Source: a virus
DNA length: 15,014 bases
Strand: one strand, 5' to 3'
UHGV virus genome: UHGV-0136760
Every line of letters starts with the position of its first letter. Positions within the stretch are counted from its first letter, which is position 1. The position numbers and the translations under genes were made by a program. This document shows positions 1 to 9,806 of this stretch, one piece after another. The notes beneath the pieces are model-generated. The model was given only the letters and a program-made list of their open reading frames with translations, did not search any database and was not told where the DNA came from.

Positions 1-22
1 TGCCGGGGCGTAGTGTAGAAGG

Positions 23-190
23 TTATGCTTTTCTGTTTTTTTTCTGTGCTTGTTTGCAGGCGTAGGCCATTGCTTTAGCTTTCACTTCGTCCAGCTTGCC
101 GGAGATTACTTCTTTCCCCAGGGTGACAAACCAGTCATAGCAACCGCCAGTCACGTTCTGGATTTGAAAGTTAAGATAGCGAACAGTCAT
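23..190 (-). CDS. hypothetical small protein (55 aa)
   Basis: Track ORF 23..232 trimmed to the internal ATG at 190, which has a GAGGA Shine-Dalgarno about 7 nt upstream on the minus strand. No recognisable domain. Confidence 0.4.
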   Translation of the reverse strand: MTVRYLNFQIQNVTGGCYDWFVTLGKEVISGKLDEVKAKAMAYACKQAQKKNRKA

Positions 191-250
191 TGTGGATATC
201 CTCAAATACAGCCAAACGTGCTGGTGGAACAAGCCACCAGCATTAAAAAA

Positions 251-436
251 TCAGTGGCGAATGCAGCCAGCGAAAAAGCAGACATGTGTAGGCGCTACCA
301 GGCGACGCGCTTCTTTTTCTGTTTCAGCTTCAATGCGGAAGGTGACGAGTTTTTTTTCTTTAGAATCGCGAGGAAGACCGCCGATGATCCATAGCGGGGG
401 GCGTTTATCGGATTTGGAATTAGCGTAAATATTCAT
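251..436 (-). CDS. hypothetical small protein (61 aa)
   Basis: Track ORF 251..520 trimmed to the ATG at 436, which has an AAGGAG Shine-Dalgarno 8 nt upstream. Sequence MNIYANSKSDKRPPLWIIGG...; no recognisable domain. Confidence 0.45.
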   Translation of the reverse strand: MNIYANSKSDKRPPLWIIGGLPRDSKEKKLVTFRIEAETEKEARRLVAPTHVCFFAGCIRH

Positions 437-677
437 AGTGTGACTCCTTGCATCTGGAGCCGCCGCAAGCTGTTCCACGGCTGGTGGCGGCGCAATACAG
501 GCTGGAACACCGTGAGTCACCGGGGGCTTTCAGCCACCCATATTGCGCCGCCATAACTATGACGCGGGCAATATTACAAAACTTAATAAGATTTGTCTCG
601 TTTGATTCGACGGTGCCAACCGACTAATAGGAATTTACTTAAAACTAATTTGTAGATCAACTAAAACTGTTAGAAAA

Positions 678-1283
678 TTAAGGTGTCAAATCAAGCGCCA
701 TCTTATAGAGCGTCATTTGGTCGGCATTGTGCCGTATAAAATCACTCTTACCGCCTACCTTTCCATCAGCATGAACGGGTACCAGCCAGGGATACTGTGT
801 CCGGACTTCTGCTGGCGCTGCATGTTGGTGATGCCATTTGCACAAAGGGAGGACATATTTATGTGCATCTGCGACTGTCCTGCCAAAAATGTGATGCAGG
901 GAGATGTGTGGACTATGCTTGCCATGCAACTGGCACGCAATACACGGTAAGGTGGCAATGGCACCCTGTATTCTGCGTTCTTCCGCTGTCAGTGAGCGCC
1001 CTTTTAGTCCGCGTGATGCACGTTTGGTTACTGCCACCTTTTTTACTTCCCCGGCAGAAGCCTTGCTCATAGCTTTCTCTTTTCGGCGTTCCTCTGCCTT
1101 CCTGACTGCTTCAATTTTTTCCTGACGATATTCAGGTGAAGCCAATTTTTCACGTGTGCGCTGATACTGGCGCTGTGCTCTCAAACGCTGTTTTTCCCGT
1201 TGTGATTCTCTCCACTCAGGATCGGACAATTTCTGTAGCGCTTTCTGGCGCTGCTTTTCCCACAGAGACAGTTTTTCTTTCAT
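678..1283 (-). CDS. HNH endonuclease, Ref-like (phage P1 recombination enhancement function family)
   Basis: 201-aa ORF. The N-terminal half is a highly charged K/R/E/Q-rich region; the C-terminal half carries an HNH/zinc-finger signature (CIACQLHGKHSPHISLHHIF ... LPLCKWHHQ). Assignment by motif recognition only. Confidence 0.65.
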   Translation of the reverse strand: MKEKLSLWEKQRQKALQKLSDPEWRESQREKQRLRAQRQYQRTREKLASPEYRQEKIEAVRKAEERRKEKAMSKASAGEVKKVAVTKRASRGLKGRSLTAEERRIQGAIATLPCIACQLHGKHSPHISLHHIFGRTVADAHKYVLPLCKWHHQHAAPAEVRTQYPWLVPVHADGKVGGKSDFIRHNADQMTLYKMALDLTP

Positions 1284-1330
1284 AGCGATACCTGGTTATT
1301 CATACGAGGACACTATGATTGATCGAATTC

Positions 1331-1358
1331 GTTAGAAATTCAAAATTGAATTTCTAAC
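1331..1358. promoter_or_regulatory. 28-bp palindromic operator-like site (GTTAGAAATTCAA-AA-TTGAATTTCTAAC)
   Basis: Perfect 13-bp inverted repeat arms with a 2-bp spacer, in the intergenic region between the divergent Ref-like gene and the rightward operon. A TTGAAT -35-like hexamer (1346-1351) lies inside it. Confidence 0.5.
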
Positions 1359-1403
1359 ACATTTTGGTAGTCTTTGCGCATTGCCTTCATTCGGGAGAAC
1401 ACA

Positions 1404-1556
1404 ATGCTGATTGTTTTGAGTGCGCTACACCTTCCGCCTCTAACTGACACCACCCTGTCTCATGGTCTGCTTTTGTTAGCGCTGGCACTTTTTGAACTTG
1501 GGATTGAGCTTTTTGCTTTGACGCTGTTTTTCGTAACGATGCTGGAGAAATTCTGA
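1404..1556 (+). CDS. small hydrophobic membrane peptide (50 aa)
   Basis: ATG at 1404 with a GGGAGAA Shine-Dalgarno 4-5 nt upstream. Almost entirely hydrophobic sequence (LLLLALALFELGIELFALTLFFV). Its stop overlaps the next start (TGATG). Confidence 0.4.
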   Translation: MLIVLSALHLPPLTDTTLSHGLLLLALALFELGIELFALTLFFVTMLEKF

Positions 1557-1849
1557 TGGCACGTGCTTTGAAGTTTTATATCGCTGGCCCCATGACTGGC
1601 TACCCTGATTACAACCGCGCAGCGTTCGATGCTAAAGCCAAAGAGCTTACGGAGCAGGGGTATACCGTAATTAACCCAGCCATGTTGCCGAATGGGCTTA
1701 CCCAGGCTGAATACATGGATATTTGCCTGGCGATGGTTCGTTCAGTTGATGCGGTGTATTTACTTAAAGGCTGGGAGGGATCCGCAGGAGCGCGGGCAGA
1801 GTACGCGCTGGCTGAAAAATTAGGCCTGATGACTGAGGTGGAGATATGA
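1556..1849 (+). CDS. DUF4406-like protein (nucleoside 2-deoxyribosyltransferase-like fold)
   Basis: N-terminal FYIAGPMTGYPDYNRAAF motif typical of DUF4406 / deoxyribosyltransferase-like proteins. GGAGAAA Shine-Dalgarno; its stop overlaps the downstream start (ATGA). Confidence 0.6.
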   Translation: MARALKFYIAGPMTGYPDYNRAAFDAKAKELTEQGYTVINPAMLPNGLTQAEYMDICLAMVRSVDAVYLLKGWEGSAGARAEYALAEKLGLMTEVEI

Positions 1850-2490
1850 GCAACCGTTTTTACATGTTGTGCCTTCGTGAAACGGTCGGTAATAACGCCT
1901 CATTCCATTGCCACAACGGTTATGGGTACAGTTCGGATATTGACCGCGCACATGTTTATACACGGGAAGAAGCCCAGCAGGAGTGGGAACGAGGACGAGA
2001 CATTGATCAGCCTGTTTGCGCTGATAGCGTGGATGCAATGGCTGTGTGGCACGTTGATTGCCAGTACATCCCTACAGAAAGCCTGATTGAGTCAGATTGC
2101 ACTGCGTATGTGGCCTACAAAAAAGGTAGCTGGAACGGCAACGATGTTTACTGGCTTCAACACGGTGGATTGCCAACAGATGACTTCAGTAAAGCGACCA
2201 TCTTTAGCGTCGCCAACAAAAACGAACCAGGAATAGTTTGGTTGCCATTTTCCATTGCTGATGCAGCAAAGCGCCGGACGTTCAATATCAATAACTTTAA
2301 CCGCAGAACAATGGTTCAGGGCGCAGGTTTAGTGATGCCTGAGTGGTTAAAAAAACAGAACAGACGAAAGGAATCACGTAGCGGTAAGGTGCGCTGGAAC
2401 TGTCCGTATTGCGGAAAAATCACCTGGCAATACAGCCCATATGATTTTGAAGGATGTCGTGATTATAACTGCGAAGGGTGGATGCAATGA
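1846..2490 (+). CDS. hypothetical protein with C-terminal zinc-ribbon (CPYCG...C..C), paralog copy A
   Basis: 214-aa ORF translationally coupled to the DUF4406 gene. C-terminal CxxC...CxxC motif. Near-identical paralog at 4590..5234. Confidence 0.65.
2005..2273 (+). repeat. 269-bp segment identical to 4749..5017 (core of duplicated gene)
   Basis: By-eye comparison of the two paralog genes: this core appears base-for-base identical, while flanking parts of the same genes are clearly diverged. Confidence 0.75.
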
Positions 2491-3149
2491 CGAAATACTA
2501 CCAGCGAATCGACGGCACAGAATTTAGAAATGTATGGGTAGTAGGCGATCTGCATGGCTGCCACACGCTGTTAATGAATGAGCTGGACCGCGTTGGCTTT
2601 AACCCGGAATGTGATTTGCTCATCTCTGTGGGTGATCTTATTGATCGTGGTCCTGAGAACGTTGAGTGCCTGGAGCTTTTACAGATGCCCTGGTTCAGGG
2701 CAGTAATGGGAAACCATGAGGATTTAATGCTCGACGGTATATCGCCAACGGGGAGTGTAACGAACTGGTTGATAAATGGCGGCGGTTGGTTCTACTCGCT
2801 GGATACGGATAAAAAAGCACTTGCTATGTCGCTGGTGGAACGTGTCAGACAGTTACCGTACATCATAGAGTTGAAAACCACGTCAGAAACTATCGTGATC
2901 GCCCATGCTGATTATCCGGACGGAGAATATCAATTTGGGAAGCAGGTGCCTTTTTTCACTGTTATGTGGGGCAGGGAACGCATCAGTGAGTCTATAGACG
3001 GCATCGGTGGAGAAATAGCAGGTGCTGACAGATTCATCTTTGGTCACTCACCTGTAAACATGCCTAAAACCTTCTGGAATCAGCACTACATCGACACTGG
3101 TGCGGTGTATTGCGGAAAACTGACGCTAATGCAGGTCCAGGGGGTTTAA
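2487..3149 (+). CDS. Ser/Thr protein phosphatase, lambda NinI (lambda PPase)-like metallophosphatase
   Basis: PPP-family metallophosphatase motifs GDLHGC, GDLIDRG and GNHE, and a length (220 aa) matching lambda phosphatase. Start taken at the ATG at 2487, which overlaps the upstream stop (ATGA), rather than the track start at 2478. Confidence 0.85.
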
Positions 3150-3165
3150 CTTTTCATGTGCCGCG

Positions 3166-3188
3166 CCGGGGAATAGCCGTGTCCCCGG
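3166..3188 (+). other. GC-rich hairpin (CCGGGGA-N9-TCCCCGG) downstream of the phosphatase gene
   Basis: 7-bp inverted repeat directly after the stop at 3149. Not followed by a T-tract, so not a canonical intrinsic terminator. Confidence 0.25.
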
Positions 3189-3223
3189 TCCGAACTATAG
3201 ATACAAAGCGCACAAACATAAGT

Positions 3224-3251
3224 GTTAGAAACTTGATTTTAATTTTCTAAC
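3224..3251. promoter_or_regulatory. second 28-bp operator-like site (GTTAGAAA-N12-TTTCTAAC)
   Basis: Same 8-bp outer arms and same 28-bp length as the palindrome at 1331-1358. Lies about 45 bp upstream of the 3295 start and overlaps a TTGATT -35-like element. Confidence 0.45.
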
Positions 3252-3294
3252 AGATTATTTTACCACTCGGAACAAAACTGAGTCGGTATCTATT

Positions 3295-4290
3295 ATGAGT
3301 GCAATTATTACCCCCTATGTCTCGCAAGAGACTGGTGTTGCAGTCTTTAAGGTAGATAAGGCCACCAGCGGCTTTATCGGTTCCGGTAGACGCTTCATCA
3401 TTTCCCCGTTACCACGCGAACAAGCAGAAAACACTGCTGATGGTATCGTAGACCTTAACTATTCGCTGGTGGCTAATGAATCCTTATCACCATTCTTCAA
3501 TAGTGAGCGTGTCTTTACCGTTCTTGGAGGCGAGGGTTCTTTAGTGTCATGGGTAAGTCGCAATATCCATGAATGCCAGGCGCATGACAAAACACTATGT
3601 AGCAACAGGTTAACTACCCATTTCCATAATGGTTCAGCCGTGCGTTTATGCTGGGATCATGACGCTGAGTACATGATGAAAGGCTACGACAAGTTACGTG
3701 ACCAACTGGCGCTTAACCGGGCCAACTGGATTATGAACTGGGCGGCTAGTGAGTTAAAACTCCCTGCTGAACGTGACCTGAGCATGGTTGAGCTTGCGTT
3801 CTGGGCTATTCGTCGCGGCCTGAAAAATGAGTTACCGGAAGAAGCCGGGCGTATCGCTTTGTGTCTGCCAAAAGATGAAATCCCTACCGGACCGCTGAAA
3901 GAGTCCGATATCACCTGGCAAAACAGTACACGTGAAATTGTGAATTTAACCGCAGAGCAGATCGTAACTATTGCCGTTGATGAAGATTCCGGCCTGCTTT
4001 ATATGCGCCGACCAAAAGCGGTCCTCGGTAAAAGCCCGGCTTATCTCCGGTTTGTGGTTTCTCGTCCGTGCATCGGATGCGGTGGCAAAGTTAACCACCC
4101 GTTCATGTACCGCGCCCGCTCGTTAAACGAACACGACCGCTGGGCTGTTCCTCTTTGCGATGACTGCGCCAGAAGCGCAGAAAACGATGTTCGGACATGG
4201 GAAAAAGCACATGGCATACGCCTTTACGTAGCCGCTAACCAGCTTTTCGACTTCGCCATTGAGCGCGGAGTGATCACGTTCAATAACTGA
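3295..4290 (+). CDS. DUF968-like (YdfU-like) phage protein with C-terminal Cys-rich HNH-like motif
   Basis: 331-aa ORF. C-terminus CIGCGGKVNHP...NEHDRWAVPLCDDC resembles an HNH/zinc-binding motif. Family assignment from memory of the DUF968 architecture; unverified. Confidence 0.55.
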   Translation: MSAIITPYVSQETGVAVFKVDKATSGFIGSGRRFIISPLPREQAENTADGIVDLNYSLVANESLSPFFNSERVFTVLGGEGSLVSWVSRNIHECQAHDKTLCSNRLTTHFHNGSAVRLCWDHDAEYMMKGYDKLRDQLALNRANWIMNWAASELKLPAERDLSMVELAFWAIRRGLKNELPEEAGRIALCLPKDEIPTGPLKESDITWQNSTREIVNLTAEQIVTIAVDEDSGLLYMRRPKAVLGKSPAYLRFVVSRPCIGCGGKVNHPFMYRARSLNEHDRWAVPLCDDCARSAENDVRTWEKAHGIRLYVAANQLFDFAIERGVITFNN

Positions 4291-4303
4291 TGGAAACAAC
4301 GCA

Positions 4304-4597
4304 ATGAGTCAAGGTAACGGTGACGGAGCTGCAAAGTGCAGAATCTCCACTTGTTTGATTAATGACAGAAAAATAGAACCGTGCGCGGCGCTGGCACAAT
4401 CTCTGGAGCAGGATGCTGAATACACGACGCGAAAAGGTCTGCTGAAATACAAAATCTATAACCATGAATTAATTCATTCACAAGACCTGATCATGCTGCG
4501 GTCTGGTGAATTTTCTAAATCGCCTATTCGAGTTTCATTTTGCCCGTTCTGTGGTGAAAGTCTGAAAACGTGGGAAGCGGAGGCAACCAGTGAATAA
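4304..4597 (+). CDS. hypothetical small Cys-containing protein (97 aa)
   Basis: ORF with cysteine pairs (CRISTC ... CPFCG) suggesting a zinc ribbon. Its 3' end overlaps the start of paralog copy B by 8 nt. Confidence 0.5.
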   Translation: MSQGNGDGAAKCRISTCLINDRKIEPCAALAQSLEQDAEYTTRKGLLKYKIYNHELIHSQDLIMLRSGEFSKSPIRVSFCPFCGESLKTWEAEATSE

Positions 4598-5234
4598 CCG
4601 CTTTTACATGATGTGCTTGCGTGAAACTGTGGGTAATAACGCCTCATTCCATTGCCATAACGGCAATGGTTACAGTTCTGATATCGATCGCGCTCATGTT
4701 TACACGCTGGAAGAAGCCCAAAAAGCCTGGAATTGTGGACGAGATATCGATCAGCCTGTTTGCGCTGATAGCGTGGATGCAATGGCTGTGTGGCACGTTG
4801 ATTGCCAGTACATCCCTACAGAAAGCCTGATTGAGTCAGATTGCACTGCGTATGTGGCCTACAAAAAAGGTAGCTGGAACGGCAACGATGTTTACTGGCT
4901 TCAACACGGTGGATTGCCAACAGATGACTTCAGTAAAGCGACCATCTTTAGCGTCGCCAACAAAAACGAACCAGGAATAGTTTGGTTGCCATTTTCCATT
5001 GCTGATGCAGCAAAGCGTCGGACGTTCAATATCAATAACGTTAACCGCAGAACAATGGTTCAGGGCGCAGGTTTGGTCATGCCTGACTGGTTGAAAGAGC
5101 AGAACAGAAGAAAGAAGTCGCGAAGCGGGAAGGTGCGTTGGAATTGTCCGCATTGCGGAAAAATAACCTGGCAGTACAGCCCATATGATTTTGAAGGCTG
5201 TAGTGATTACAACTGTGAAGGATGGCGAGAATGA
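4590..5234 (+). CDS. hypothetical protein with C-terminal zinc-ribbon, paralog copy B (GTG start)
   Basis: 214-aa ORF, same length and same C-terminal CxxC...CxxC motif as 1846..2490. The central part is identical at the nucleotide level; the ends are diverged. Confidence 0.65.
   Translation: MNNRFYMMCLRETVGNNASFHCHNGNGYSSDIDRAHVYTLEEAQKAWNCGRDIDQPVCADSVDAMAVWHVDCQYIPTESLIESDCTAYVAYKKGSWNGNDVYWLQHGGLPTDDFSKATIFSVANKNEPGIVWLPFSIADAAKRRTFNINNVNRRTMVQGAGLVMPDWLKEQNRRKKSRSGKVRWNCPHCGKITWQYSPYDFEGCSDYNCEGWRE
4749..5017 (+). repeat. 269-bp segment identical to 2005..2273
   Basis: See paired repeat feature; offset between copies is 2744 bp. Confidence 0.75.
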
Positions 5235-5839
5235 CAATTGACTATCAGGCACTGCGAGATGCGGCAGAACGTGCAATTCCAGCAATGGAACGCCTGTTAA
5301 TGTTGCCAGTTGATGATGATTTGTTAAGTGAACAGGAACTTAAAGATTACGGTGTGGATATTGATGCGCTCAACGCCTTCAAATTTCTGACCGGACCAGA
5401 AACCGTGCTGGCACTACTGGATGAGATCAACGCATTAGAGGAAGCGCGTATCAACGATGTTTGCCGTATTGCGGAACTAACAAAACAACTGGAGTTGGCA
5501 AAATCAAAACTCAACGAGCAGCGTGAGTATTACGAAGGTGTTATCTCGGATGGAAGTAAGCGCATAGCAGAACTGGAAGCGCGGGGAATAAAACCAGCCA
5601 AAGGTGAAGTTCTGGTCGTTGTATCTGGTTTTACTGGTTGCGGAAAAAGCGCCATTGCCGGGGAAATAGAAATCGCGATGAAGGCTATTGGTGTACCGGT
5701 TCAGTGGACTAATGGCGATGCGGAAAAGCGCATGACAGGAGCTGACTGGCTGACAGCGATTGAGATGTACAAACCAACAGTGCGCATCGTGGAAGTTAAT
5801 GTGCCACGCGCCGCTGGCATTCGCATCAAAGGAGAGTGA
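5231..5839 (+). CDS. Ead/Ea22-like protein with P-loop-like motif
   Basis: N-terminus MTIDYQALRDAAERA is typical of the Ead/Ea22-like family of lambdoid early-left accessory proteins. Contains GFTGCGKS, a Walker A-like motif. Start taken at the ATG at 5231, overlapping the upstream stop (ATGA). Confidence 0.6.
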   Translation: MTIDYQALRDAAERAIPAMERLLMLPVDDDLLSEQELKDYGVDIDALNAFKFLTGPETVLALLDEINALEEARINDVCRIAELTKQLELAKSKLNEQREYYEGVISDGSKRIAELEARGIKPAKGEVLVVVSGFTGCGKSAIAGEIEIAMKAIGVPVQWTNGDAEKRMTGADWLTAIEMYKPTVRIVEVNVPRAAGIRIKGE

Positions 5840-7030: not shown

Positions 7031-7579
7031 ATGACCACTATTACCAATAAGAAACAGTATCCCAGCGAGCAATATCTTAATGAGCTGATCACCAACATAG
7101 AGTTTGCTGCAAGGGCACCAGTTGAAGTCGTGAGAGCGATGGCAGCAGAGCTACAGAAGCGGCGCGAAGCTGATAGTGCAGAACCTGTAAGCCAAACTTA
7201 CAAGTTGCCAGTTAATACACCTTGCCAAGATGCGCCAGCCCATATCTGGCTGCAAACGGCTGGAGTATGGCCAGAAGATGGCGAGTTAAGCGAATTAACG
7301 TGGTGCAGCCACAATCAGCACCATGATGACACGCTATATGTTCGAGCTGACCTTGTGAATGGCAACTATCCGGTAACTCCGGATGGTTGGATAAGCTGTA
7401 GTGAGCGAATGCCCCCTCAAGATGATTGGATTTTAATTTATTCAAAGCACGGCGAGTATATGGCAGGACAGGTACAAGGGGAATACGTGGAGTTGAGCGA
7501 CGGCACTTTATCGTGGTTAGGGAACGCCTTGTACTGGATGCCACTACCAGAGCCGCCGCAGGAGGTTAACCGTGGCTAA
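7031..7579 (+). CDS. hypothetical protein with C-terminal DUF551-like domain
   Basis: ATG at 7031 with a GGAGAG Shine-Dalgarno. C-terminal region GWISCSERMPP...WMPLPEPP matches the phage DUF551 signature. Confidence 0.55.
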   Translation: MTTITNKKQYPSEQYLNELITNIEFAARAPVEVVRAMAAELQKRREADSAEPVSQTYKLPVNTPCQDAPAHIWLQTAGVWPEDGELSELTWCSHNQHHDDTLYVRADLVNGNYPVTPDGWISCSERMPPQDDWILIYSKHGEYMAGQVQGEYVELSDGTLSWLGNALYWMPLPEPPQEVNRG

Positions 7580-8756: not shown

Positions 8757-8776
8757 GTGGTCTTATTCCCCACTTC

Positions 8777-8830
8777 ATAACGGATATCACGCTCGTGATA
8801 ACGGATATTCCAATTTTGATAACGGATAAG
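8777..8830 (+). promoter_or_regulatory. three phased direct repeats of (G)ATAACGGATA upstream of the 8836 gene
   Basis: Copies at about 8777, 8797 and 8818, spaced 20-21 bp apart (about two helical turns), in the 79-bp intergenic gap. Confidence 0.45.
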
Positions 8831-9045: not shown

Positions 9046-9806
9046 CTAAAATCACTAAATTTCGCATATCAGAGATTATTGCACGCATCGAAATGTATGG
9101 ACACGGCGCTGGATACACGGCAGATGAGGTATTGGAGCTTGCCCAAATGGCTTTGGCGACTTGCAAAGATGGTAAAACAATGAAGCTGATCGACTTGTTA
9201 GTGAAGGAGTTGCCTAAGCGCGGCGGATGGCCTTATGGTATGATCGATTGTCGCCTGCTCAGTGCCAATTTAATGGTGCCATGCGCGACTTTTGCTTTTG
9301 GCTCAGACTGCAAAAAAGACCAGTTCGATGGGCGCAATTTTTGTTTTGAGATTGAGCTTCCAATTCATGACCTTGATAGCGATGAATACCAGTCAGTTGT
9401 CACTCACGAACAATACGAAGCCGCTCTCATAGCGTCGCAGCAAGTCGAGTTCAATGGTGATGAACTTGAAAGTAAGGCTTACAAGTTAGATTTTGAGCAA
9501 TGGCTGGAGCAGCAGCGCGGGAAAATCGATGTGGACTGCGGTTGTGTGTCTGCGGAAACATTCATGCACTGGTTGCGGGTAGCTTATGAGGCTGGCAACC
9601 ATCCGGATTTTCCGGATAGTTCCCAACAAGCGCCCAGGAAAAGCGTAAAAACCACTCTGGAAAGAGGCTATCTTGAGGCCGCATTAAAGATTAAGCCGGG
9701 CCATACGCTAGGCGTCATTGATGCCATGTTGGTTCATGAAATGGCGAAGGCTTTATTGCCGCTGGTGGCTGATAAACATGAGGCGGACCATGCCAACGAA
9801 AGCTGA
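9042..9806 (+). CDS. hypothetical protein (254 aa)
   Basis: Start taken at the ATG at 9042 (MTKITKF...), which has an AAGGAAAT Shine-Dalgarno and overlaps the upstream stop. No recognised domain. Confidence 0.55.
   Translation: MTKITKFRISEIIARIEMYGHGAGYTADEVLELAQMALATCKDGKTMKLIDLLVKELPKRGGWPYGMIDCRLLSANLMVPCATFAFGSDCKKDQFDGRNFCFEIELPIHDLDSDEYQSVVTHEQYEAALIASQQVEFNGDELESKAYKLDFEQWLEQQRGKIDVDCGCVSAETFMHWLRVAYEAGNHPDFPDSSQQAPRKSVKTTLERGYLEAALKIKPGHTLGVIDAMLVHEMAKALLPLVADKHEADHANES

Follow-up and report, generated by a model that had tools for sequence, protein, structure and literature searches.

A mosaic allele of a 214-aa accessory gene in a P1-like phage-plasmid, with a central tract probably acquired by recombination

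Genomic context of the two gene copies

The window analysed here, a stretch of 15,014 bp that corresponds to the metagenome contig NODE_1245 (coverage 4.7), is the accessory early region of a P1/P7-like phage-plasmid. Indeed, it displays synteny and high identity with such elements in the genes encoding Ref, an Icd-like protein, hot/theta, humD and tail proteins. It is 98–100% identical over positions 1–4000 and 95–99% identical over 10.4–15 kb to the 80-kb plasmids of Shigella dysenteriae, which share rep_cluster_1704 with the P1-like plasmids of Escherichia coli. Furthermore, its density in Chi sites (16 versus 0.54 expected) is P1-like, P1 being known as a Chi-rich phage that depends on RecA and RecBCD (PMC12315714).

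Two copies of a gene encoding a 214-aa protein, hereafter A and B, are found in this region, with a start-to-start distance of 2744 bp (Table 1). As reported in a preliminary description made from the sequence alone, each copy has its own upstream partner, a DUF4406 gene for A and a gene encoding a 97-aa Cys-containing protein for B. The pairing with DUF4406 recurs in Rahnella (locus L084), together with a distant homologue of the A/B gene, and 24 of the analysed loci have the homologue of Upf87.4 as upstream neighbour. The modular partner swapping that had been proposed from this organization holds in the ordinary phage-mosaic sense only: near-identical genes of the same type as copy B (B-type alleles) are found behind at least seven unrelated upstream genes, and conservation at B-type loci starts only ~12 nt before the start codon. 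The DUF968 gene, which lies between the copies, itself shows a mosaic (or assembly) breakpoint: its identity with the S. dysenteriae plasmid is 99–100% before ~4000 and drops to 77% beyond; in this last part, the gene is 99% identical to locus L092 and 96% identical to locus L094.

Table 1. Coordinates of the two gene copies, of their segments and of neighbouring features in the window
Feature	Position	Strand	Remarks
Ref, RecA-dependent nuclease (P1 recombination enhancement function)	678..1283	-	Recombination context
DUF4406 gene	1556..1849	+	Stop overlaps the start of A (ATGA)
Copy A	1846..2490	+	214-aa gene, P7 Upf87.6 / PHROG 2457 family; mosaic allele with lineage-specific ends and B-type middle
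A-lineage 5' segment	1846..2004	+	31 differences with B, of which 26 are found in no B-type allele
Identical stretch in copy A	2005..2273	+	269 bp identical to 4749-5017
Full putative recombinant tract in copy A	2005..2330	+	326 bp identical to the B-type population consensus, zero A-private sites
A-lineage 3' segment	2331..2490	+	26 differences with the B-type consensus, 19 of them A-private
NinI-like Ser/Thr phosphatase gene	2487..3149	+	Between copies A and B
Chi site	2831..2838	+	341 bp beyond the 3' end of copy A; 16 such sites in the whole window
DUF968 / HNH-like gene	3295..4290	+	Mosaic (or assembly) breakpoint near 4000
Gene of the 97-aa Cys-containing protein	4304..4597	+	P7 Upf87.4 homologue, PHROG 4030; overlaps the start of B
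Copy B	4590..5234	+	Ordinary B-type allele, P7 Upf87.6 homologue
Core of copy B	4749..5017	+	Identical to 2005-2273

Protein family and predicted fold

Both proteins match the PHROG 2457 profile over residues 1–214 (E = 1.3e-114 for A and 2.9e-119 for B), and the product of copy B is 92.5% identical to Upf87.6 from phage P7 (AAQ07562.1), a protein for which no paper was found in the literature. The predicted fold of the 214-aa protein is confident, includes a C-terminal C4 zinc ribbon and has no match in the PDB. The note attached to the P7 protein, 'putative tyrosine protein phosphatase', is unsupported, with neither a Pfam match nor a PDB fold match. The HCxxGxx motif ends with an invariant Tyr instead of an Arg and its Cys is not conserved; the association of a PTP fold with an HCx5R(S/T) catalytic loop is not found in this protein.

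Comparison of copies A and B

The ungapped alignment of A and B (645 columns) includes 59 mismatches, 31 of which are located in gene positions 1–159 (80.5% identity) and 28 in gene positions 429–645 (87.1% identity). Between them, gene positions 160–428 form a core of 269 bp devoid of any mismatch, versus 59 in the other 376 bp. When 59 mismatches were placed at random in 200,000 trials, no identical run longer than 164 bp was obtained, and the analytic bound for an identical run of 269 bp gives P ~9e-13. The two 214-aa paralogs with an identical 269-bp core and diverged ends that had been noticed by eye are therefore confirmed, the mismatches being clustered in the ends rather than evenly spread (P ~1e-12). 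The homology between A and B ends at the limits of the genes, their flanks aligning at ~50%, i.e. at the level of unrelated sequences. A match of 31 nt (77% identity) at 3910–3940, inside the DUF968 gene, was considered as a possible third partial copy and was taken as due to chance.

The tract of B-type sequence in A is longer when A is compared with the population rather than with the resident copy B. With the consensus of 79 B-type alleles as reference, it reaches 326 bp (gene positions 160–485). None of the 57 differences between A and this consensus falls within the tract (P ~2e-16) and the 45 A-private sites are all located outside it. Compared with each of the 80 B-type alleles, A shows 80% and 87% identity in its ends and 97–100% in its core, all 80 IMG/VR homologues being B-type throughout. 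Copy B differs from the population consensus at four gene positions (12, 150, 429 and 451), the A/B mismatches at 429 and 451, which limit the identical stretch to 269 bp, being variants carried by the resident copy. Furthermore, two unrelated viral contigs match the 326-bp tract of A exactly. Recombination is pervasive in this gene family, as illustrated by the B-type alleles, for which Rmin reaches 13 and 307 pairs of sites are incompatible.

Constraint or recombination

The preliminary description mentioned, as an alternative to recombination, a functional core under strong constraint. Such a constraint could be exerted on the protein core, on an embedded RNA or DNA element or on an overlapping gene. 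Indeed, both genes are intact and evolve under purifying selection, the dN/dS between the ends of A and B being ~0.08. However, dS reaches ~0.89 in these ends, where synonymous sites are near saturation, whereas none of the ~55 synonymous sites of the core is changed (P ~3e-18). As the identity of the core reaches synonymous sites, it is not explained by selection at the protein level. Furthermore, B-type alleles differ from one another in the core, where 47 sites are variable, 30 haplotypes are found and pi is 1.55%, versus 2.3% and 2.0% in the ends. In homologues from Klebsiella, Citrobacter, Kluyvera and Rahnella, the divergence of the middle of the gene equals or exceeds that of the ends, for the nucleotide sequence as well as for the protein, and the middle is 64–75% identical in other lineage pairs, i.e. 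the same as the ends or lower. In distant homologues, it is even the least conserved part of the protein (54–62% versus 62–75%). A search against Rfam at gathering thresholds gave no match over the window and the z-score of the RNA fold of the core is only -0.38; an RNA or DNA element located in the core was therefore rejected. Globally, a special constraint on the core has a negligible probability, and this alternative was rejected because ~55 synonymous sites are unchanged between A and B in a core that varies in other alleles.

Origin of the mosaic allele

Finished plasmids provide an independent confirmation of the mosaic structure of A. Indeed, the same mosaic allele, 99.8–100% identical, is found in four finished P1-like plasmids of S. 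dysenteriae and in the assembly ERR212308, none of which carries a second (B) copy. As the same mosaic A allele occurs in elements devoid of B, the recombination event predates the present A/B arrangement.

The core of A is therefore most probably a recombinant patch of the version common in E. coli (B-type), i.e. a case of ordinary phage gene mosaicism rather than a special conserved element. Copy B is the common allele, in circulation among the P1-like plasmids and lambdoid prophages of E. coli. Copy A, judged by its ends (~80–84% nucleotide identity, synonymous divergence near saturation), would belong to a separate and older lineage, in which homologous recombination with a B-type allele close to the consensus would have replaced the central 326 bp, as a non-reciprocal patch of gene conversion. 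The donor could be any co-resident B-type gene, carried by a prophage or by another plasmid, or an ancestral second copy. RecA-dependent recombination would be a plausible mechanism in a Chi-rich genome that encodes Ref. As a by-product, this exchange would have generated a direct repeat of ~270 bp, with copies located 2.7 kb apart, that could support the deletion of the genes in between.

An unconverted allele of the A lineage, with A-type ends and a diverged middle, was searched for in IMG/VR using exact A-specific 26- and 31-mers, in JGI metagenomes using degenerate back-translations of two A-specific peptides (12 and 11 residues), and in E. coli genomes and PLSDB by megablast with copy A; none was found in these datasets or in the phage collection. 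As this parent was not found, we infer the ancestral state and the direction of the transfer, which would be from a B-type gene into A. A B-type gene in which each end was replaced separately would show the same pattern, at the cost of two events.

The preliminary description proposed a recent conversion or recombination between older paralogs. Recombination between diverged alleles is retained; a recent conversion between these two residents is not, since mosaic A is found without B. Such an intragenomic conversion, possibly reflecting an ongoing concerted evolution of the core, could find favourable conditions in direct repeats separated by 2.7 kb within a genome that is rich in Chi sites and encodes Ref, and the core haplotype of the resident B is exactly that of A, which is true of only 5 of the 80 other B-type alleles. 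However, this common haplotype is also the population consensus, and the resident B differs from A at two sites over the 326-bp tract. It is thus no better as a donor than a typical B-type allele (median of 2–3 differences), and one of its variants, 451G, is unique to it (0 of 79 B-type alleles). In addition, a second deposit of the contig (see below) has two A/B differences inside the core. With mosaic A present in plasmids that lack B and B no closer than a typical allele, the two residents are not identified as donor and recipient; conversion between them is not demonstrable and appears improbable. Still more speculative, and very improbable, is that the A/B pair is a maintained system, whose homogenised core would serve as a recombination handle. 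Helped by Chi, RecBCD, RecA and Ref, this handle would allow the 2.7-kb segment that carries the phosphatase, DUF968 and Upf87.4 genes to be excised or reshuffled, and would yield hybrid A/B proteins whose N- and C-terminal specificity ends are exchanged. If true, it would amount to a simple cassette switching for a two-domain zinc-ribbon protein without any solved fold relative.

Reliability of the two-copy arrangement

A single metagenome contig of low coverage (4.7x) supports the physical linkage of A and B. A second deposit of this contig, with the same length and nearly the same sequence, has a C instead of a T at 2210 and 2251, both in the core of A; it presumably comes from the same sample and is not independent of the window. 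It is also the only match when an independent assembly of the two-copy arrangement is sought, and no finished record of this arrangement was found in E. coli genomes, PLSDB or the phage collection. In addition, the MEGAHIT contig L097 has a C at 4817, inside the core of B. The exact identity of the A and B cores (269/269) in this sample is not robust.

An assembly artefact, in which A and B would be located on different molecules joined as a chimera inside DUF968 and/or in which small differences between the cores would have been collapsed by the assembler, is an unlikely alternative. The low coverage, the switch of alleles inside DUF968 near 4000, the sites that differ in the alternative deposit and the MEGAHIT contig, and the lack of a finished two-copy record in the collections listed above are all in its favour. 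However, the A and B alleles are each attested independently with the same end-core-end pairing, and DUF968 alleles recombine naturally in finished plasmids. Furthermore, as the far side of the window returns to a S. dysenteriae-like backbone (95–99%), a chimera would need two switches. An artefact would bear on the linkage of A and B and on the exact 269/269 identity, not on the mosaic nature of A.

Relationships with known systems and significance

In phage P7, Upf87.6 has Upf87.4 and the Ead-like Upf88.3 as neighbours, and copy B lies in the same order, Upf87.4–Upf87.6–Ead/Ea22. In contrast with the P7 gene, copy A has lineage-specific ends and is located between DUF4406 and the phosphatase gene. 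Among bacterial genes, tufA and tufB of Salmonella are paralogues that undergo gene conversion while being permanently co-resident. The A/B pair seems comparable to tufA/tufB by an identity tract that includes synonymous sites and is flanked by diverged sequences, but the converted A allele circulates without any second copy, and a donor carried by another element is therefore at least as likely.

The abrupt switches of identity within and between genes, the near-identical cassettes in unrelated contexts and the junctions at gene boundaries are features shared with the mosaicism of temperate phages and phage-plasmids and with relaxed homologous recombination (PMC3945230; PMC10879196). Unlike in usual phage mosaicism, the exchanged piece is an intragenic patch of 326 bp, both ends of the recipient gene being preserved, and it forms, in this contig, a direct repeat with a second copy. 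About 15% of the genes of phage-plasmids were classed as recombining (PMC10879196).

The ~326-bp patch described here is a clean case of intragenic recombination in an accessory gene carried by P1-like phage-plasmids, and provides a small but well-resolved data point for the frequent homologous exchanges between phage-plasmids and prophages in Chi-rich, Ref-encoding genomes. This patch being older than the duplication-like arrangement, it also calls for caution: without data on the population, an identical core shared by paralogues is not safely read as local gene conversion. The gene family itself is common across Enterobacterales, and its confidently predicted fold has no counterpart in the PDB.

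Gene content and affiliation of the window

The window is contig NODE_1245_length_15014_cov_4.70 of a metagenome assembly (ENA ERZ1745275). Shigella dysenteriae 80-kb P1-like plasmids match positions 1-4000 at 98-100% identity and the far end at 95-99%, and the phage P7 genes Upf87.4, Upf87.6 and Upf88.3, in this order, are the counterparts of copy B and its neighbours. These matches identify the window as part of a P1/P7-like phage-plasmid, namely its accessory early region.

Features of the window
Feature	Position	Strand
Ref, RecA-dependent nuclease	678-1283	minus
DUF4406 gene	1556-1849	
Copy A, 214-aa gene	1846-2490	
NinI-like phosphatase	2487-3149	
DUF968 gene	3295-4290	
97-aa protein	4304-4597	
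Copy B, second 214-aa gene	4590-5234	
Ead/Ea22-like gene and TGT/DpdA-like gene	after copy B	
DUF551-type genes, DNA polymerase III theta homologue, UmuD-like gene	further downstream	

A recombination tract rather than a constrained core

An ungapped alignment of the 645-bp copies A and B contains 59 differences (31 at gene positions 1-159, none at 160-428 and 28 at 429-645), and the similarity between the two stops at the gene borders. The preliminary description, which reported identity over exactly 2005-2273 and 4749-5017 between diverged ends, is thus accurate: the mismatches are not evenly spread but all lie outside these 269 bp. When 59 mismatches were placed at random (200,000 trials), the longest identical run did not exceed 164 bp, and the analytic bound for a 269-bp run is about 9e-13. 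The identical core is therefore real and highly non-random.

This core had been attributed either to strong constraint or to recent conversion or recombination between older paralogs. Third codon positions hold 40 of the 59 differences, and the ends display a dS of 0.89 and a dN/dS of 0.08, indicating that both genes are old and under purifying selection. Constraint on the core itself is excluded by the following observations. None of its approximately 55 synonymous sites is changed (P ~3e-18). Comparison with homologues reveals that it is not identical among relatives, as the 80 homologous loci from IMG/VR show 47 variable sites and 30 haplotypes in the core (nucleotide diversity 1.55%, versus 2.3% and 2.0% in the ends). 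The homologues from Klebsiella, Citrobacter, Kluyvera and Rahnella have diverged in the middle segment as much as in the ends, and at the protein level this segment is the least conserved. Furthermore, an Rfam search gave no match and the core shows no excess of RNA structure. With constraint excluded, the identity pattern is that of a recombination tract.

All of the 80 IMG/VR homologues belong to the B-type, the common allele class circulating in E. coli P1-like plasmids and lambdoid prophages, and are 96-100% identical to copy B over the whole gene; with copy A, about 250 matches in E. coli genomes share 90-95% identity, the level given by B-type alleles. Compared with any B-type allele, copy A is only ~80% and ~87% identical in its ends, versus 97-100% in the middle. 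Of its 57 differences from the B-type consensus, 45 are found in no B-type allele and none falls in gene positions 160-485, so the tract spans 326 bp (window 2005-2330). Identity within the window is limited to 269 bp because the resident copy B varies at gene positions 429 and 451, 451G being unique to it. Copy A is thus a recombinant, with 326 bp of the common allele set into it as a patch. The explanation of the identical core is ordinary, a fresh instance of a familiar type of event.

Age and donor of the patch

The same mosaic A allele is carried by four finished S. dysenteriae plasmids (one difference, position 526) and by the ERR212308 assembly (no difference), in each case between DUF4406 and the phosphatase. 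No second copy was found in the four plasmids, whose whole records hold one matching place, nor in the remaining 4 kb downstream in the ERR212308 contig. Over the 326-bp tract, copy A differs at 2 sites from the resident copy B and at 2-3 from a typical B-type allele, and is identical to two unrelated viral contigs; the shared 269-bp haplotype is the B-type population consensus. The patch is therefore older than the two-copy arrangement and formed independently of it, and the resident copy B does not stand out as donor. Recombination between diverged alleles is upheld by the absence of core changes against a dS of 0.89 in the ends, but the resident pair is not supported as its partners, since mosaic A occurs without B. 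No unconverted allele of the A-lineage (the class defined by the ends of copy A) was found in IMG/VR, JGI metagenomes, E. coli genomes, PLSDB or the phage collection; transfer from B-type to A is therefore the parsimonious direction rather than an observed one.

Recombination in this gene is common: among 57 B-type haplotypes, 307 site pairs are incompatible and the minimum number of recombination events is 13. The window contains 16 Chi octamers (GCTGGTGG; for example at 220, 480, 2831 and 3465 on the plus strand and 234, 3362 and 8201 on the minus strand), versus 0.54 expected from shuffles, one being 341 bp downstream of copy A, and also encodes Ref. P1 is rich in Chi, with one per 1.9 kb, and depends on RecA and RecBCD (PMC12315714); the density in the window, one per 0.94 kb, is higher. 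Gene exchange is frequent in phage-plasmids (PMC10879196). Most likely, copy A would have been patched by RecA-mediated repair with a co-resident B-type gene.

Reliability of the assembly

The contig was assembled at 4.7x coverage. Another deposit, a contig equally long, disagrees with the window at 2210 and 2251 alone, two sites in the core of copy A. In the core of copy B, a 1.8-kb MEGAHIT contig has a different base at 4817; repeat collapse may therefore contribute to the exact 269/269 identity. Near 4000 the DUF968 gene changes allele: on the 5' side it matches that of the S. dysenteriae plasmid (99-100%), on the 3' side those of ERR212308 (99%) and E. coli p13ZX28-90 (96%), a switch due to natural recombination or else to a join made during assembly. 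As no finished record among E. coli genomes, PLSDB and the phage collection has the two-copy arrangement, linkage of A and B on one molecule is putative. The mosaic nature of copy A is unaffected and is confirmed in finished plasmids, which carry the same allele.

Neighbourhood and internal joins

The proposed modular swapping of partners holds insofar as B-type genes (>=96% identical) follow no fewer than seven unrelated genes, with Upf87.4 preceding them in 24 loci, but nothing goes beyond ordinary cassette mosaicism, for the B-type and A genes alike. When 60 nt on each side were compared in the 80 loci, conservation extended from the ribosome-binding segment GGAGGCAnCCA, ~12 nt ahead of the start codon, to ~40 nt inside the downstream Ead/Ea22 gene, at its N-terminus (window equivalents 4578-4589 and 5235-5275). 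The mosaic joints are thus located at the ribosome-binding site on one side and within the Ead gene on the other. In Rahnella, a 67%-identical homologue is again paired with DUF4406, as copy A is.

The E. coli plasmid pHX138.33gt_1 (NZ_CP091837.1, locus L090) owes its lack of copy A to a 632-bp in-frame deletion (seen at L090 3547-3586); its phosphatase N-terminus, VSNRFY-NYQRIDG, corresponds to the first six codons of copy A fused to the phosphatase. Other members of the Upf87.6 family are fused at residues ~46, 60 or 130 to an ASCH-like, PAPS-reductase-like or other N-terminus (proteins P0017, P0019, P0119 and P0013), showing that deletions or illegitimate joins within this gene are frequent.

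Other features of the window

The model of the copy A protein (1846-2487; m237696139f9d, pLDDT 94) has no PDB fold match and suggests two tandem ~70-aa domains (residues 5-71 and 88-145), each predicted as hairpin-helix-strand-helix-strand, and then a C4 zinc ribbon. Sequence similarity between the halves is in register but weak (E 0.46).

The palindrome TTAGAAA-N12-TTTCTAA occurs twice (1332-1357 and 3225-3250; 0.01 expected by chance), in intergenic positions ahead of the DUF4406-A-phosphatase and DUF968-Upf87.4-B units, which these candidate operators could co-regulate. The 251-aa protein encoded at 5841-6596 matches PHROG 887 'queuine tRNA-ribosyltransferase' (E 5e-103), with no Pfam, NCBIfam or PADLOC match. 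It is a candidate DpdA-like DNA transglycosylase, although the surrounding region has no obvious genes for preQ0 synthesis. Three intergenic 21-bp head-to-tail repeats (8764-8828), each with a terminal GATAACGGATA, could form a protein-binding array. Finally, two same-strand DUF551-type genes contain a 30-nt inverted repeat (7360-7389 and 9596-9625, 90% complementary) that includes CCGGA/TCCGG palindromes.
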